Shown piece after piece: positions 5,837 to 15,016 of a stretch of 64,000 nucleotides of DNA (its first letter is position 1; every line of letters begins with the position of its first letter). Origin of the DNA: an uncultured Candidatus Saccharibacteria bacterium. GTDB lineage: Bacteria > Patescibacteriota > Minisyncoccia > UBA6257 > 1-14-0-10-44-23. The position numbers and the translations under genes are program-made. The DNA lies in the NCBI GenBank assembly GCA_964641225.1, contig CAZXKC010000002.1:52893-116892 (forward strand), given 5' to 3'. Under the pieces are notes generated by a model that saw only the letters and a program-made list of their open reading frames with translations, did no database searches and was not told the origin of the DNA.

Positions 5837-6044
5837 AAGGAGTAGGTTTACCTACTTCGAGGATGTCCCGACACAGAGATGATGCAAATTTGCCTGATCC
5901 CTTTGGGTTGCAGCCCGGCTGCCGCCTGATCTCGTTGCTCGCAAAAGCCCATGCTAAAGCATATTGTCTTTTGCGCACGCCGAGCCGGTCAGGCAGCCGG
6001 ATCAGCAACGCGGCGGAAAGATGCTCAGAGCATGGGGCTTAGCC
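5792..6044 (+). ncRNA. GC-rich structured-RNA-like element, copy A, of a two-copy family of unknown identity
   Basis: Shares the core ccgcgatctagacaaa … caaggagtag-hairpin-ctacttcgagga … gggttgc-hairpin … gagcaacgcgg with copy B. Helix sequences differ but remain complementary: A gacaaatttgcatc/gatgcaaatttgcc versus B gacaaaaacccgttag/ctaacgggtttttgtc, and A gtagg-ttta-cctac versus B gtagc-ttcg-gctac. Strand was inferred from the UUCG loop and a conserved G·U pair. Confidence 0.45.
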
Positions 6045-6062
6045 ATATTAAGGTATTGTATA

Positions 6063-6542
6063 ATGAAGCATATGGATGAACAAGAAATTATTTGGTCTTC
6101 GCCGGAATTCCATGTTGTAGAACGGAGCTCAAACTGGTATCTGGCTAGTTTAGTAGTTGCTGCCGCAATTGCTATATTTTGTTTGTTTCAGAAGAATTTT
6201 CTCTTTTTGCTCTTTGTGATCATCGCCGAGACAACGCTGCTTTTTATGACGAAACAAAAGCCGAAACTTTTTGGATATGAAATTACCAGTCAGGGGATTA
6301 CGGTTGATGATGTGCTGGTCTATAAATTCTCGGAAATGAACGGGTTTGCGATCGTTGATGACGGGGTCAGTATGTATGTTGAGCTGGTGATTCGGCCGAT
6401 AAAAAAGCTTGGTCAGTACGGCAAGATTTTATTGCCGCGGGTGATGACCGGTGAGGTGTTTGCAGTGCTTTCGCGATATACCTCGGAATTCAAATATGAG
6501 GAGACAATGACCGAGTCTATGATTAAGAGAATCGGGTTATAG
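6063..6542 (+). CDS. Membrane protein with bacterial PH-like (DUF304/YdbS-like) architecture
   Basis: Two N-terminal TM helices (WYLASLVVAAAIAIFCLF / LFLLFVIIAETTLLF) are followed by a beta-rich domain. ATG at 6063 (MKHMDEQ…) follows an AT-rich stretch. Confidence 0.55.
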   Translation: MKHMDEQEIIWSSPEFHVVERSSNWYLASLVVAAAIAIFCLFQKNFLFLLFVIIAETTLLFMTKQKPKLFGYEITSQGITVDDVLVYKFSEMNGFAIVDDGVSMYVELVIRPIKKLGQYGKILLPRVMTGEVFAVLSRYTSEFKYEETMTESMIKRIGL

Positions 6543-6562
6543 ACGTCAGTAGGTATATAGAT

Positions 6563-7054
6563 ATGCATGTTCAGGAACTGTATTGGAAAGCGCCTGACTT
6601 TCGAAGAGCCAGGAAGCGTGCCACCTGGCACAGCCTTACTATTTTTGTAGCCATTGGACTCGGGATTGTTGCATTCATAGAAAGTAGCATCCCGTTTTTT
6701 ATTGGGATTATTATTGTTGAATTTTTTATTCTGATCGGTTCAAAGCGAGGGCGGGTAATTACGGCGGAGTATAGAGTTGATCGCGTTGGATTATGGTATG
6801 GCTCTGAACTTGTATATCGACGCGAAGAGATTGTGCGTTTTGACATTAGAGATCACGGTGATGCGCTTGACGTTGTGCCGTGGTGTGAATTGATTTTAGC
6901 GGTGCGCGGTCGGCGGCCTAATATTCGGCGCATGCTTATTCCGCACGAGAAACGGAAAGAGCTTCGATCGTATCTTATCGATGCGTGGCAGATTCAGGAA
7001 TTTGAATACCGAATCGGCGCCATTGGGTTTCTTAGGCGCTTACTGGGGTTGTAG
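6563..7054 (+). CDS. Paralogous PH-like (DUF304-type) membrane protein
   Basis: Same architecture as the upstream gene: two TM helices followed by a soluble domain. The two genes are tandem. Confidence 0.5.
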   Translation: MHVQELYWKAPDFRRARKRATWHSLTIFVAIGLGIVAFIESSIPFFIGIIIVEFFILIGSKRGRVITAEYRVDRVGLWYGSELVYRREEIVRFDIRDHGDALDVVPWCELILAVRGRRPNIRRMLIPHEKRKELRSYLIDAWQIQEFEYRIGAIGFLRRLLGL

Positions 7055-7115
7055 AAACGACTTTACAGAAGTTGCCTTTTTTCACGTTTTCGTATAAAAT
7101 TCAAAAACTGTAAAC

Positions 7116-7180
7116 GCTCTTGTCGTTCCCGCCCCTGTAGGGGCGAGGCTCGCCCAAAGTATTGGGCGGCAATGGATACC
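7116..7180 (+). other. Partial duplicate of the tRNA-Arg 5' end, interrupted by a 41-nt GC-rich double hairpin
   Basis: gctcttgtcgttc (identical to tRNA positions 1-13), then ccgcccctgtaggggcgaggctcgcccaaagtattgggcgg, then caatggata (matching the D-loop). The intact tRNA lies 147 bp downstream. Confidence 0.5.
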
Positions 7181-7262
7181 CTTTTATAGTATTCTTGTTG
7201 AGAGGGTGCAAGTGTCAGTTTGGCGAATGCTTGGTGGGTTAGCATAGTTCGCGATAGTCAAA

Positions 7263-7334
7263 GCTCTTGTCGTTCAATGGATAGGACAGCCGCCTGCGAA
7301 GTGGCAAATGTAGGTTCGATTCCTACCGAGAGCA
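7263..7334 (+). tRNA. tRNA-Arg, predicted anticodon GCG
   Basis: Manual fold: acceptor GCTCTTG/CGAGAGC, D-stem GTTC/GGAC, anticodon stem GCCGC/GTGGC with loop CTGCGAA, T-arm GTAGG-TTCGATT-CCTAC, discriminator A. CCA is not encoded. Confidence 0.7.
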
Positions 7335-7705
7335 CACTGTTGTAAAAGACTCATTCAAAGAGTCGATATGCGTTTGTTTTGTAAGCTTCTGTGGAGGCTC
7401 TAGCCAAGCATGGGGTTCCCACCTCTCAATTAGATTTTTTTCACTCATAAGCACAAGTAAGCCCATTCAAATATAGCTTCTTGGTCTTTTGGTGGAAGGT
7501 TCTAGTAATGCATAGAATACAAGCTCTGAGATTCTGTATCTCAATAATGATCTATACAGATAGCCCCAGTCATCGCACGGTCTCCCGTGGGGCTTCCGTT
7601 AGTCCTGCCTAGATACTTTCTAAGAAACCCTAAGAAAAACTCCATATGGGTCGCCGTGGTGAGTCTTTTTTAGCTAAAATAAGAAAGATTTGGTAAAATC
7701 AATTT

Positions 7706-8284
7706 ATGAAAGAAATTATTGGCGTCATTGCGGTTATTCTAACTTTTGTGGCATATGTTCCGTATTATCGGGACATTCTTAAAGGAAAAACTCATCCACA
7801 CATATATAGTTGGTCGCTATGGGCGTTACTGACAATCTTACTCGTTGCCCTGCAGATTAAAGGTGGTGCTGGTCCTGCTACTTGGGTTACTGCTGCGGCG
7901 GGTCTTTTGTGTGTTGGAGTAGTTTTATTCAGTCTCAAAAGTGGGAAAAAGAACATTACTATATCAGATACGGTTGTAGCTATTCTGTCACTTATCGCAA
8001 TTGGTTTTTGGCTTATTGCTGATCAGCCGATAGTATCTATAACCCTGGTTATTGTTGCTGATATGTTGGCATTCATTCCAACGGTTCGTAAGTCGTACCA
8101 AGATCCTTATTCTGAAACATTATCACTCTATGTTACAAATGCACTACGATTTACTCTTGCACTATTAGCAGTGGAGCATTACACCTATCTCTCCACATCT
8201 TGGATTGTGGCTTGGATAATTGGAAATGCCCTACTCTCGATACTTCTCATCGTGCGACGAATGCAAATCAAGAGAAGTAATTAA
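7706..8284 (+). CDS. Polytopic membrane protein of unknown function
   Basis: 192 aa with about six hydrophobic helices. A clear ORF follows a 370-bp non-coding stretch. Confidence 0.55.
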   Translation: MKEIIGVIAVILTFVAYVPYYRDILKGKTHPHIYSWSLWALLTILLVALQIKGGAGPATWVTAAAGLLCVGVVLFSLKSGKKNITISDTVVAILSLIAIGFWLIADQPIVSITLVIVADMLAFIPTVRKSYQDPYSETLSLYVTNALRFTLALLAVEHYTYLSTSWIVAWIIGNALLSILLIVRRMQIKRSN

Positions 8285-8371
8285 AGACTTTGAATTTTAG
8301 ACAGTCACCTCGGCAGGCAGAACAAGAGCCGGAACACTCGTAAATTGGTTTCTAGCGGCGTACAATAGGGA

Positions 8372-8419
8372 GCACAAAACCAAAACACCTGCGCTAATGC
8401 AGGTGTTTTGGTTTTGTGC
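8372..8419. terminator. Perfect 20-bp-stem hairpin between convergent genes
   Basis: gcacaaaaccaaaacacctg-cgctaatg-caggtgttttggttttgtgc. Confidence 0.5.
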
Positions 8420-8440
8420 TTAATGAGTAACTTAAGGTGA

Positions 8441-8471
8441 GGCCGGGCTTAATCTCCGATTAAGCCCGGCC
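8441..8471. terminator. GC hairpin followed by TTT
   Basis: ggccgggcttaatctccgattaagcccggcc then tttgaatg. Confidence 0.45.
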
Positions 8472-8487
8472 TTTGAATGATGTGTCG

Positions 8488-9123
8488 TCACGAGATAAAG
8501 ACCTCGCGTACGCTTTCTTGCTCATTGTCGTCGAGCAGGCCTCGAATGCTTTCGTAGACGTCGTCCCAGGCTGAACGAAACTCTTCGGGCGTAATTCCGG
8601 CGCGCTTCGAGTCGTACACGCCTATGACATCGCCGTCCTCGGAAATCGATTCGACGAAGGTTGCGCGCTCGACAAGAGCTGCAACTCTGTGATGAGCTGC
8701 GCGAACCCGATCAAGCATCGCTGTGAGTTCTCGATCTGTTCGGTCGCGTCGAAGTCGAGACATGGCGGCGATGAATTTCGGAGGAATATCGCTCGGAACC
8801 TTTCCTTCGATGATCCCAGCCAGGCTTCCATAATAGCGCGCTTCAGCGGCAATCTTTTTCTCTCTGTAATCAACAGAAGCTACCTGCTTGATCTGTACCT
8901 CCGGAGTTGATACTGAGGCGGGCTGCTCCTGAATTTCGGCTTTGACGACCTCTTTCGGGCTTTCTAGATTGCGTGGCCGTGAGGCCGAGCTCGACTTTGC
9001 ATCTGTGCGCACAACCCCGGTCTGCTTGGTGTCCGAGGTCGAATCTACTGGATAGCGGTAGGCGAGTCCGCATACCAAGCCAAACAGGAAGATGAGGCAA
9101 AAACGAACGGATCGACTGAACAT
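8488..9123 (-). CDS. Hypothetical secreted protein on a GC-rich island
   Basis: Signal-peptide-like N-terminus MFSRSVRFCLIFLFGLVCGLA. The ORF is about 57% GC against a 45-50% background. I recognise no motif. Confidence 0.5.
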   Translation of the reverse strand: MFSRSVRFCLIFLFGLVCGLAYRYPVDSTSDTKQTGVVRTDAKSSSASRPRNLESPKEVVKAEIQEQPASVSTPEVQIKQVASVDYREKKIAAEARYYGSLAGIIEGKVPSDIPPKFIAAMSRLRRDRTDRELTAMLDRVRAAHHRVAALVERATFVESISEDGDVIGVYDSKRAGITPEEFRSAWDDVYESIRGLLDDNEQESVREVFIS

Positions 9124-12748: not shown

Positions 12749-13024
12749 CTATTTCACAGCGTCTTTGAGGAGCTTACCAGCCTTAAATTTAGGAACCTTT
12801 GATGCAGCGATCTGGATTTTGGCTCCGGTTTTCGGGTTAACACCGGCGCGAGCGGCGCGCTTTGCAACCTTAAAGGTACCAAAGCCGGTGATACCGACCT
12901 CGTCGCCTTTCTTGAGTGCGGTGGTAATCGTATCAAAGAACCATTCAACGATCTCGCCAGCTTGTTTTTTTGTCTCAAGACCTGCTCCTTTGTAGAGCGC
13001 TTCAACCATGTCGTCCTTCTTCAT
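12749..13024 (-). CDS. hup: HU-family nucleoid DNA-binding protein
   Basis: MKKDDMVEAL…GFGTFKVAKRAARAGVNPKTGAKIQI matches the HU signature GFGxFxxxxRxARxGRNPxTGxxIxI. Confidence 0.9.
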   Translation of the reverse strand: MKKDDMVEALYKGAGLETKKQAGEIVEWFFDTITTALKKGDEVGITGFGTFKVAKRAARAGVNPKTGAKIQIAASKVPKFKAGKLLKDAVK

Positions 13025-13127
13025 AGAAATTATTTTTAATTTAGTAATGCTGGAATTATACACGAGGCCTTAGAAAACAAGCAATAGCGCGGATTTATGG
13101 CTGTGAATATCTTGTATTAAAAATAAT

Positions 13128-13209: not shown

Positions 13210-13473
13210 TTAGTTTGGTTCGCGTAATTGTTCGCGCAACATTCTTTTGATTGCCCATGCGCCCTGACTTGTTTTCAGGTATCGTTCTCTGCGCCGAGCG
13301 TCTTCTTCGTTGCGATGCCCTTCAAAATAAATAACTTTCCATGGCGCATAGGGCGCAGTTGATTTGTTTTCTTTACGATTATGTTCTTCTAGGCGACGTT
13401 TCAAGTCGGTCGTAAGGCCAACATACAGCCCACGGTCTTTATTCATTAAGACATACACCGTGAAAAACATCAT
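13210..13473 (-). CDS. Small GIY-YIG nuclease-superfamily protein (YhbQ/UPF0213-like)
   Basis: FFTVYVLMNKDRGLYVGLTTDLKRRLEEHN carries the GIY…YVG…R…E motifs. Confidence 0.7.
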   Translation of the reverse strand: MMFFTVYVLMNKDRGLYVGLTTDLKRRLEEHNRKENKSTAPYAPWKVIYFEGHRNEEDARRRERYLKTSQGAWAIKRMLREQLREPN

Positions 13474-13489
13474 CGCACTTGCGTCGTCA

Positions 13490-15016
13490 CTACCTGGCGT
13501 ACTCAACTGCTCGAGTTTCGCGAATCACGTTGACTTTGATTTCACCCGGATACTTCATGTCCGTTTGAATTTTGTTTGCGATGTTACGTGCCATGTCGAG
13601 CGCGGCAAAGTCATCGATCTTTTCTGGAATTACGAATACGCGGATTTCGCGGCCGGCTGAAAGAGCGTAGGCCTGCTTAACTCCTTCAAACTTGCTCGTT
13701 ATTTCTTCCAGATCTTTAAGGCGCTTAATATATTGCTCGACGGTGTCGCGGCGAGCACCTGGGCGAGCAGCCGAGAGAATGTCGGCCATCGTAACGATGT
13801 ACGCCTCAGGCGAGGAGAATGGGTAGTCCTCGTGATGGCTTTCCATAGCAGTGATAACGGCCTGCTCTACGCCGTATTTAGCCAAAATTTTGCGACCAAG
13901 TTCAACGTGCGTACCTTCAACTTCGTGGCTGATTGCTTTGCCAATGTCATGGACAAGTGCGCCTTTTTTGGCGATATCAACATTAACGCCGAGTTCGCGG
14001 GCGACCATGCCGGCAATGTGGGCCATTTCAACTGAGTGCAAAAGCACGTTCTGACCATAGCTGGTGCGGAAGTGCAGGCGACCCAAAAGCTGGAGAATTT
14101 CCTTTGGAAAACCAGTAATACCGACTTCAAGCGTGGCCTGTTCGCCGATTTCCTGCATGCGGCGGATGAGCTCTGTTTTACAAGCCTCGACGGTTTCTTC
14201 GATGCGAGCAGGCTGAATGCGGCCGTCTTTAATCATTTTGTCGAGCGTCATACGCGCGATCTCGCGACGAAGGGGATCAAATGACGAAAGAATGATTGAC
14301 TCCGGTGCCTCGTCGATAATAATTTCAACACCCGTAGCTCGTTCAAGCGCCTTAATGTTGCGACCCTCGCGGCCGATGATTTTTCCTTTAATATCTTCTG
14401 ACGGCAGGTGGAATACTGAGGTGGTAACATCAGCAACCTGGCTGCGCGCGTAGCGCATCAGTGCGGTCGTGATAATTTCCGAGGTTTTCTTTTCAATTTC
14501 ATCGCGACGTTCGTGTTCTACTTTTTGAATCGTGGCGACCATGTCGGCCTTGTAGCGCTCCGTAATGTCTTTAATAATCATCGACTTTGCCTCCTCAGCC
14601 TTCATGCCGGTGATTTTTTCCAGGTGAGCGACGGCTTTGGCGTGTGTTGCGTCTGCGTCTGCTTTAAGAGAATCAACTTTTTTCAGCTCCTCCTGAAGCT
14701 TTGTTTCTCGAGAGGTGATATTGCTCGACTGTGATTCAAGGGTCTCTTCGCGCTTAATAAGGCGCTCCTCAGTTTTGTTGAGCTTTTCCGTGCGATCGCG
14801 TTCGGCTTTTTGACTCTCATTAAGAACCTCGGCCGCTTTTAATTTTGCGTCGGCAACAAGATGCTCGGCCTTTTTCTCTGCCTCGGCAAGCTTAACTTTT
14901 ATTTCTGCATCAACTGACGCTGCTGTCTTGCTGCTACGTGATTTACTGACAAAGAAGCCCGCCGCCGCTCCGACAACTAAAAATACCCAAACCAGTGGGT
15001 TGGAGAGAAAGTTCAT
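13490..15016 (-). CDS. rny: Ribonuclease Y
   Basis: N-terminal TM helix, a long coiled coil, a KH region (IIGREGRNIKALE), and an HD domain (HSVEMAHIAGMVARELG…VHDIGKA). Confidence 0.9.
   Translation of the reverse strand: MNFLSNPLVWVFLVVGAAAGFFVSKSRSSKTAASVDAEIKVKLAEAEKKAEHLVADAKLKAAEVLNESQKAERDRTEKLNKTEERLIKREETLESQSSNITSRETKLQEELKKVDSLKADADATHAKAVAHLEKITGMKAEEAKSMIIKDITERYKADMVATIQKVEHERRDEIEKKTSEIITTALMRYARSQVADVTTSVFHLPSEDIKGKIIGREGRNIKALERATGVEIIIDEAPESIILSSFDPLRREIARMTLDKMIKDGRIQPARIEETVEACKTELIRRMQEIGEQATLEVGITGFPKEILQLLGRLHFRTSYGQNVLLHSVEMAHIAGMVARELGVNVDIAKKGALVHDIGKAISHEVEGTHVELGRKILAKYGVEQAVITAMESHHEDYPFSSPEAYIVTMADILSAARPGARRDTVEQYIKRLKDLEEITSKFEGVKQAYALSAGREIRVFVIPEKIDDFAALDMARNIANKIQTDMKYPGEIKVNVIRETRAVEYAR

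Follow-up and report, generated by a model that had tools for sequence, protein, structure and literature searches.

The feature considered here occupies positions 7055-7705 of a 64-kilobase (kb) stretch of contig CAZXKC010000002.1 from an uncultured Candidatus Saccharibacteria bacterium. This whole stretch is referred to below as the window. The feature consists of a tRNA-Arg gene that is preceded by a partial and interrupted copy of its own start. The initial annotation described an intact tRNA with a GCG anticodon, an exact repeat of its first 13 nucleotides (nt) located 147 bp upstream, a 41-nt GC-rich double hairpin following that repeat, and a D-loop-like sequence after the hairpins. Each of these elements was recovered. 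ARAGORN calls a tRNA-Arg with the same anticodon at 7263-7335, the Rfam tRNA model gives 60.5 bits at 7263-7334, and the locus is organized as follows:

7072..7100, forward strand: sigma-70-like promoter candidate TTGCCT-17-TAAAAT, a consensus match only, 15 nt before the tRNA fragment
7116..7128, forward strand: nt 1-13 of tRNA-Arg repeated without mismatch (acceptor 5' strand, U8 C9, D-stem 5' strand)
7129..7169, strand undefined: 41-nt GC-rich palindromic module that interrupts the tRNA copy
7170..7178, forward strand: tRNA copy resumes with CAATGGATA, which equals tRNA nt 13-21 (D-loop)
7178..7207, forward strand: hairpin B (ACCCUUUU...AGAGGGU, ~10 bp)
7208..7262, forward strand: 55-nt spacer before the intact tRNA
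7263..7335, forward strand: intact tRNA-Arg(GCG) (ARAGORN, Rfam)
7336..7705, strand undefined: 370-nt non-coding spacer, whose membership in the 5' structure is not established

The sequence GCTCTTGTCGTTC occurs exactly twice in the 64 kb searched, at 7116-7128 and 7263-7275, and the repeat continues weakly for 6 nt in the 5' direction (GTAAAC vs GTCAAA). Chance, which had been kept as a possible account of the upstream match, is excluded by the low probability of an exact 13-mer within 400 nt (p ~6e-6) together with the presence of the same architecture in other loci. The 41-nt insert is single-copy in the window, also when up to 3 mismatches are allowed, and folds as two hairpins at -24.2 kcal/mol; alternatively, it can be viewed as one long imperfect palindrome centred on GAG-G-CTC. 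Since an independent Logan assembly (L003, SRR14271336) matches 5907-7292 at 100%, the structure is not an artefact of one assembly pipeline. According to a consensus scan of 6900-7800, the site at 7072-7100 is the only promoter-like one on the forward strand, with none directly 5' of the intact tRNA. Terminator-like sites (a GC hairpin plus a T-run) were not found in this interval, and the hairpins run into CAATGG and GTGCAAG. No open reading frame (ORF), tRNA-body remnant or remnant of a GIY-YIG nuclease gene was detected in the spacer 7208-7262. When 4227 Rfam covariance models were run on the region at permissive thresholds, the tRNA alone passed and the others stayed far below their gathering scores; six related loci treated in the same way also gave only the tRNA. 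The other tRNAs of the window (Gly, Leu, Val, Glu) have no detectable 5' or 3' copies. The ORF at 7063-7245 on the reverse strand overlaps the palindrome and has no Pfam match, in agreement with its earlier dismissal as this region merely read in frame.

The arrangement is not confined to this genome. In related loci from metagenomes and metagenome-assembled genomes (MAGs), which comprise 1.15 Mb in total and are given L-numbers here, every 12-mer of 206 tRNAs was compared with the 400-nt flanks on both sides. Exact repetition of a tRNA's own first 12 or more nt, upstream and on the same strand, was found for 13 of the 206, at distances of 50-350 nt. Among the same 206 there were no opposite-strand upstream copies of a tRNA start and no upstream copies of 12-mers starting at nt 26-46, and upstream matches from later positions occurred only at loci with two tandem tRNA-Arg genes. 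The isotypes involved are Arg, Ser (n=3), Asp, Gly and Lys, to which Asn can be added if the 6-nt copy in L024 is counted. At several tRNA-Arg loci the first 12-13 nt are repeated 75-170 nt upstream despite differing acceptors, and in all five lineages compared the leader carries the acceptor strand of the local tRNA:

window: GCTCTTG
L135: GCTCCCC
L051: CTCCTCG
L117: CCCCTCG
L133: GCCCTTG

In eight cases, one of them the window, a GC-rich hairpin module of 20-43 nt splits the copy, and tRNA sequence returns behind it. The lengths of 5' copy, hairpin insert and resumed tRNA (in nt; those of L135-Arg and L133 were read by eye) are:

window: 13/41/9
L051: 13/33/7
L135-Arg: 13/43/7
L133: 15/40/6
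L081: 36/38/8
L021: 12/26/8
L135-Ser: 16/20/12
L024: 6/41/6

Copies of the 5' end without a palindrome are present at L053, L098-Ser and L117. Judged from sequence, the window structure is one example of a recurring class of tRNA 5'-end insertions in the ultra-small Patescibacteria. In the literature searched, the coverage of which was incomplete so that absence is no proof, we found this architecture nowhere described, and the class is apparently undescribed so far.

Two loci display tandem arrangements at a tRNA start. At L098 10799-10900(+), two tandem 51-nt units without a palindrome precede tRNA-Ser(GCT), each opening with the first 12 nt of the tRNA and closing with a -10-like A/T-rich stretch. 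At L083 1052-1221(-), two tandem pseudo-tRNA units of ~85 nt precede a rumen-type tRNA-Arg(GCG); these consist of tRNA nt 1-26 plus a different arm, the loop of which has 6 nt, and they lack a T-arm and a 3' acceptor strand. Relatives with an identical tRNA (L140, L128, L121, L066) do not have such units.

The direction of the event can be read from nearly identical alleles. The flanks of L133 and L079 are almost the same on both sides, and L133 has an extra 75-nt unit without an ORF, composed of tRNA nt 1-15, a 40-nt palindrome, TGGATA and 14 nt, after which the intact tRNA follows. This unit is missing in L079, L141, L115, L113, L057 and L070, which have the same flanks; in L079 and the five other relatives the tRNA comes directly after the upstream ORF. 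Since a single gain in L133 is more parsimonious than six precise losses, the unit arose by insertion. The L133 fragment retains the native upstream flank, which agrees with the position of the sole promoter-like site of the window 5' of the fragment. In L135, inspection by eye revealed TTGCCT-17-TATATT upstream of the fragment, with the same -35 hexamer and 17-nt spacing as in the window. L051 and L134 are identical in tRNA and downstream flank and differ upstream. The initial annotation had left a choice between an insertion or recombination scar and a split or pseudo-tRNA; the recurrence and the filled/empty pair support the former, and the complete tRNA downstream speaks against a split gene.

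In five loci the gap between copy and tRNA is ~310-350 nt (L021 Asp, L081 Arg, L098 Gly, L135 Ser, L024 Asn), and in every one of them it encodes a protein of ~90 amino acids. The ORFs of L021, L081, L098 and L135 are GIY-YIG nuclease genes (PF01541, E 1e-12 to 8e-16). A hidden Markov model (HMM) built from these four also detects the L024 ORF, an ORF upstream of tRNA-Ser in L088, and a gene at 13210-13506(-) of the window itself. The gap ORFs abut or enter the tRNA, with ends at -8 to +22 relative to tRNA base 1, and in L081 the duplicated unit takes in 42 nt upstream of the tRNA that code for the C-terminus of the ORF. A GIY-YIG ORF accompanies four of the eight interrupted copies, or four of seven if the window is left out.

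On balance, we take 7116-7178 to be the trace of a selfish duplication and insertion at the 5' end of the tRNA-Arg gene, in which a nuclease was probably involved. What the data show directly is a duplicate of the gene start that is truncated and interrupted by a palindrome, and that belongs to an insertion-generated class often carrying a GIY-YIG gene. A more detailed scheme, which we put forward only tentatively, is that miniature cassettes invade the 5' part of Patescibacteria tRNA genes, from D-loop to anticodon loop. Such a cassette would consist of a palindromic module of ~40 nt with or without a GIY-YIG gene of ~90 codons, and the tRNA would be spared by duplication of the promoter-proximal segment instead of by splicing. 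The palindrome would break the repeat, giving either immunity from re-cleavage or protection from deletion, and the window would hold an ORF-less member mobilised in trans. By analogy with the free-standing GIY-YIG homing endonucleases of phage tRNA clusters, the process may start with a break in the 5' part of the tRNA gene, probably made by a nuclease, which is repaired into the duplicated arrangement. In this class, 12-42 nt of promoter-proximal tRNA sequence, in some cases together with upstream flank, are duplicated and the tRNA stays intact; the repair would leave the payload, palindrome with or without ORF, between the old start and the restored complete gene. For the window, this would mean that the tRNA-Arg gene originally began with the fragment at 7116-7178, which has kept its place behind the promoter, and that a 147-bp duplication or insertion displaced this start upstream; the ORF-less unit could be a trans-mobilised copy or a deletion derivative. 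Transcription would begin at ~7107 from the promoter candidate at 7072-7100 and pass through a leader of ~155 nt, and cleavage by RNase P at 7262/7263 would release a normal tRNA. We infer the causal role of a nuclease, this route of transcription and processing, and the lack of function of the leader alike.

The closest parallel in a known system is SegB, a GIY-YIG nuclease of phage T4 that recognises a motif in the tRNA T-arm and spreads by homing inside clusters of tRNA genes (PMC2330249). SegB also causes a tRNA plus segB unit to be amplified in tandem, the 5' end of the tRNA sharing microhomology with the 3' end of segB (PMC13096335). The likeness lies in a GIY-YIG gene directly beside tRNA genes in the related loci, a target inside the tRNA gene sequence and spread together with flanking tRNA DNA, and the tandem tRNA plus nuclease repeats resemble L081, where the 3' end of the ORF and the 5' part of the tRNA are duplicated. 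The differences are considerable, however, since SegB is encoded by a phage, has a DNA-binding domain and targets a T-arm motif, whereas the predicted nucleases found here are chromosomal proteins of Patescibacteria, ~90 amino acids long and restricted to the catalytic domain. Moreover, it is the 5' D-arm/anticodon side that is duplicated here, the copy is split by a palindrome, and the window unit has no nuclease gene. As a SegB-like cassette proper the window locus does not qualify: the adjacent GIY-YIG ORF present in L021, L081, L098, L135 and L024 is absent here. On this reading, the kind of element is already known, being selfish DNA in tRNA genes related to homing-endonuclease cassettes, and what is new is the architecture of 5' copy plus palindrome.

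Several observations weigh against a selfish, nuclease-associated origin. No GIY-YIG ORF or remnant is present in the stretch searched, 7055-7705. The end of the RNase Y gene (13490-15016) overlaps with the GIY-YIG gene of the window (13210-13506(-), ~87-98 amino acids), and an HU gene (12749-13063) comes next; the order rny-GIY-HU is kept in L167, with a GIY-YIG protein 75% identical to that of the window, whereas other homologues have unrelated gene neighbourhoods. The gene of the window and five homologues are flanked by protein genes and have no tRNA in their vicinity, which limits the link between nuclease and tRNA to a subset. The link is, furthermore, an association in a tRNA-centred sample, and proteins of ~90 amino acids comprise a catalytic domain without the DNA-binding domain of proven homing enzymes. 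A filled/empty pair for an ORF-bearing unit was not found among the related loci. Neither was an orthologous empty site for this genome found via the flanking proteins, so that insertion in the window is argued by analogy: the upstream 163-amino-acid protein is an orphan with no homologue besides itself, and the 192-amino-acid PQ-loop protein has hundreds of homologues, none of them behind a tRNA-Arg and none syntenic with the window. The palindromes differ between lineages and have no second copy in 64 kb, which leaves their origin without explanation. The same holds for self-immunity, as the intact downstream tRNA would keep any target site. Finally, the conserved palindrome and the perfect acceptor copy fit a host function equally well.

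The last point deserves attention in view of the homology and folding of the palindromic module. A blastn search of the 1.15 Mb with the 208-nt leader matched window 7125-7176 to L135 5712-5765 at 83% over 54 nt (E 2e-7), the rest of the query giving no other significant match; L135 is of a distant lineage and has its module at the same position of the tRNA, and the tRNAs of the two loci have 56 of 72 nt in common. The stems are kept and the loops differ, as is seen from CCGCCCC-TGTA-GGGGCG in the window and CCGCCC-ATAGTAAT-GGGCG in L135, with GAGGCTCGCCC as common core. A core AGGCTCGC is common to the window and L051, of which the outer stem has a different sequence. Counterparts of hairpin B are the CCC...GGG hairpins after CAATGGA in L135, L051 and L117, the last of which is without the palindromic module yet has this hairpin. 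That the module is similar in surroundings that have diverged beyond recognition indicates that it is either constrained or recently transferred, not neutral scar DNA. In the thermodynamic fold of the window leader (z-score -1.8 to -1.9), 7116-7122 pairs with the 3' acceptor strand of the tRNA, for which the upstream copy thus competes. The folds of L051 and L135 (z ~-3.2 to -3.3) are closed and multi-branched, the copy being paired with a complementary stretch further downstream. For the four homologous Arg leaders, the MAFFT alignment was too poor and the sequences were too few for a covariation count. A search of viral contigs gave no match to a 24-nt stretch of the palindrome and 95 chance matches to its 15-nt core, none with the full module.

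The 2.2 kb of L051 2005-4210 contain nine occurrences of the motif CTACGGGG / CCCCGTAG, distributed over both strands; one of them is located inside the tRNA 5' fragment. It forms the foot of CCCxGTAG...CTACGGGG hairpins and may represent a local palindromic repeat family. A similar hairpin with apex GAGCAAAGCTC lies 3' of a GIY-YIG gene in L027.

An unlikely explanation, although the best of the alternatives, is that the leader is a functional RNA under selection, a mimic of the tRNA 5' half with stable hairpins that could tune folding, RNase P cleavage or stability of the pre-tRNA, or serve as decoy for a tRNA-binding or tRNA-cleaving factor. The palindrome conserved across lineages whose remaining leaders do not match, the stems maintained with varying loops, the acceptor copy that always equals that of the local tRNA, the pairing of 7116-7122 with the 3' acceptor strand and the closed folds of L051 and L135 would all suit such a role, as would a mirror-image trailer (an inverted T-arm copy plus a 3'-end copy) downstream of ~13 of 93 tRNA-Arg(GCG) genes. 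Nevertheless, such leaders are found in only ~6% of tRNAs and in a minority of the tRNA-Arg(GCG) genes, and the tRNAs closest to that of the window (L076, L139) do not have one. As L133 and L079 are near-identical alleles, one with the unit and one without, the unit can be dispensed with and is a recent gain. Six isotypes have this architecture, with unrelated palindromes, the dyad symmetry of the module suits a DNA-level feature better than an RNA one, the fold of the window leader is modest by its z-score, and no Rfam family matches.

Somewhat less credible still is a scenario in which slippage or unequal recombination simply duplicated the gene start locally in tandem and an unrelated palindrome resembling repetitive extragenic palindromic (REP) elements was inserted later, without nuclease or cassette. 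It would explain why units include upstream flank (42 nt in L081, the 51-nt tandem units of L098 tRNA-Ser, GTAAAC/GTCAAA in the window) and why L053, L098-Ser and L117 have no palindrome, and the hairpin inserted in L051 resembles two nearby hairpins, as a dispersed repeat would. The coincidence of eight independent palindromes of 20-43 nt inside a duplicated tRNA segment is unlikely, however, and the same kind of nuclease gene is present in four cases. The duplicates are, furthermore, 5'-proximal only and upstream only, and the palindrome of the window, with no second copy in 64 kb, recurs in the 1.15 Mb of related loci only in L135. With REP sequences and bacterial interspersed mosaic elements (BIMEs), which are mobilised by REP-associated tyrosine transposases (RAYTs), the module shares its nature as a GC-rich imperfect palindrome of ~35-40 nt in non-coding DNA; REPs form multi-copy dispersed families, whereas the module is single-copy in 64 kb and always lies within a tRNA 5' copy, and no RAYT gene was seen. 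A REP-like dispersed repeat was rejected on these grounds: one copy in 64 kb with up to 3 mismatches, and the L135 leader as its sole relative in 1.15 Mb.

We consider it quite improbable that the fragment is what remains of a largely destroyed tRNA-Arg isoacceptor gene that once stood in tandem upstream. A precedent for the required arrangement exists in L155, where tRNA-Arg(CCG) lies 115 nt before tRNA-Arg(GCG) with the first 26 nt identical, a spacing comparable to the 147 nt of the window. Nucleotides 1-21 are 100% identical in the copy, whereas the remainder of the leader, compared with nt 22-73 of the tRNA-Arg of the window and of the tRNA-Arg(CCG) in L155, matches no better than shuffled sequences do. 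This argues for a truncated copy and not a decayed whole tRNA, the boundary being sharp where decay would be uniform. Apart from this, the L133 unit is newly gained as compared to six empty relatives, and the pattern also occurs on Asp, Asn, Gly and Lys tRNAs, which have no known tandem isoacceptor.

tRNA genes are classic integration sites, with partial tRNA direct repeats as the signature, and an attL/attR scar of an integrase-mediated island or prophage would keep the tRNA intact in a similar way, by a duplicate of the displaced segment that leaves a partial direct repeat; even so, this origin is extremely improbable. At integrase sites it is the 3' part of a tRNA that becomes duplicated, whereas here it is the 5' part, with repeats just 147 bp apart (50-350 bp in the class as a whole, not kilobases; no locus has 5' copies at kb scale) and a palindrome within the repeat. 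No 3'-end or other tRNA-derived repeat occurs downstream to 9300, a Pfam search with six neighbouring ORFs gave no match to an integrase family at E <= 0.01, and the viral-contig match of a 21-mer is to a phage tRNA-Arg(CCT) only.

Two further candidates were discarded. A split, permuted or intron-containing tRNA does not agree with a fragment that stops at nt 21, lacking the remaining arms and the 3' acceptor strand, next to an intact gene that is the only one found by ARAGORN and Rfam. A group I or group II intron was rejected as no intron family was detected at E <= 10 in 6900-7900, and the insert measures 41 nt and is followed by an uninterrupted tRNA. Group I introns do occur in tRNA genes of Patescibacteria, sometimes with homing endonuclease genes (PMC13011429). 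They are similar in being selfish DNA in tRNA genes of the same phylum with preservation of tRNA function; they rely, however, on RNA splicing and sit in the anticodon loop, whereas restoration here would take place at the DNA level by 5' duplication.

If the selfish, nuclease-associated origin is correct, these insertions would represent a third way for selfish DNA to inhabit essential tRNA genes, besides self-splicing introns and 3' ends restored by integrases. It would also provide a testable role for small stand-alone GIY-YIG proteins, a very common family without an assigned function. For the annotation of reduced genomes it is of importance that such leaders yield spurious ORFs, such as 7063-7245(-), and pseudo-tRNA fragments. 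Organisms whose RNA-processing machinery is minimal would, furthermore, have pre-tRNAs with structured leaders of unusual length, and filled versus empty alleles offer a ready marker of strain-level dynamics in uncultured Patescibacteria.

Regarding the anticodon, bacteria normally use ACG/ICG for this arginine tRNA, and GCG is unusual for model bacteria. The initial annotation had marked it as unusual on that account, which does not hold for this lineage. A metagenome scan gave at least 120 related tRNA-Arg loci with this D-arm, any anticodon stem and CTGCGAA, and among the matches listed ARAGORN confirmed tRNA-Arg(GCG) in at least 110 loci, counting those in which the upstream flank is 100 nt or longer. 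GCG thus belongs to the normal CGY-reading Arg tRNA of the lineage and is ordinary there. The flanking PQ-loop protein has hundreds of relatives that are 75-87% identical, in MAGs labelled Parcubacteria, Paceibacterota, Saccharibacteria or Patescibacteria.

The spacer 7336-7705 downstream of the tRNA, described earlier as ~370 bp of AT-rich non-coding DNA with a second GC hairpin, indeed has stops in all frames and the hairpin, at 7562-7594, although with a GC fraction of 0.36-0.44 it is only modestly AT-rich. Its fold compared to shuffled sequences has a z of -2.88, it has no homologue among the fetched loci, and no link with the 5' structure was found. A perfect 10-nt inverted repeat, AAAAGACTCA / TGAGTCTTTT at 7344-7353 / 7660-7669, starts 9 nt past the tRNA and encloses 326 bp; the two copies are the only ones in 64 kb, with 0.16 expected by chance. 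The segment 7344-7669 may be a separate small foldback insertion, or one similar to a miniature inverted-repeat transposable element (MITE), or may form a long-range RNA helix.

The trailer element of the related loci, 130-170 nt long, was found downstream of distinct tRNA-Arg(GCG) genes and has no Rfam match. It begins with ..GAACGAAGTGA.., which is followed by the T-arm of the same tRNA in inverted copy (12-21 nt, e.g. GCAGGAATCGAA), then by a hairpin in which the UGUAA loop is conserved and the stems covary, and finally by a direct copy of the last 14-16 nt of the tRNA, an arrangement that mirrors the 5' duplication. An HMM of this element had no match in the window. Examples are:

L133, 4285-4436, reverse strand
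L117, 11101-11278, reverse strand
L097, 2426-2568, reverse strand
L058, 627-805, forward strand
L103, 2509-2655, reverse strand

The PQ-loop gene downstream of the spacer (7706-8284(+); loci L004-L045 and L175-L179) is found in varied gene contexts across very diverse Patescibacteria, and six of the genome loci have a tRNA-Trp or tRNA-Met gene ~10-180 nt before it in the same orientation. Such a distribution suggests a gene that moves horizontally or that tends to settle behind tRNA genes. The sequence TGGTAAAAT at 7690-7708 reads as an extended -10-like motif that ends 7 nt before the ATG at 7706, so the PQ-loop mRNA may be leaderless. Between the convergent genes 7706-8284(+) and 8488-9123(-), two perfect inverted repeats at 8371-8420 (22-nt arms, 6-nt gap) and 8440-8472 (15-nt arms, 3-nt gap) are probably bidirectional terminators.

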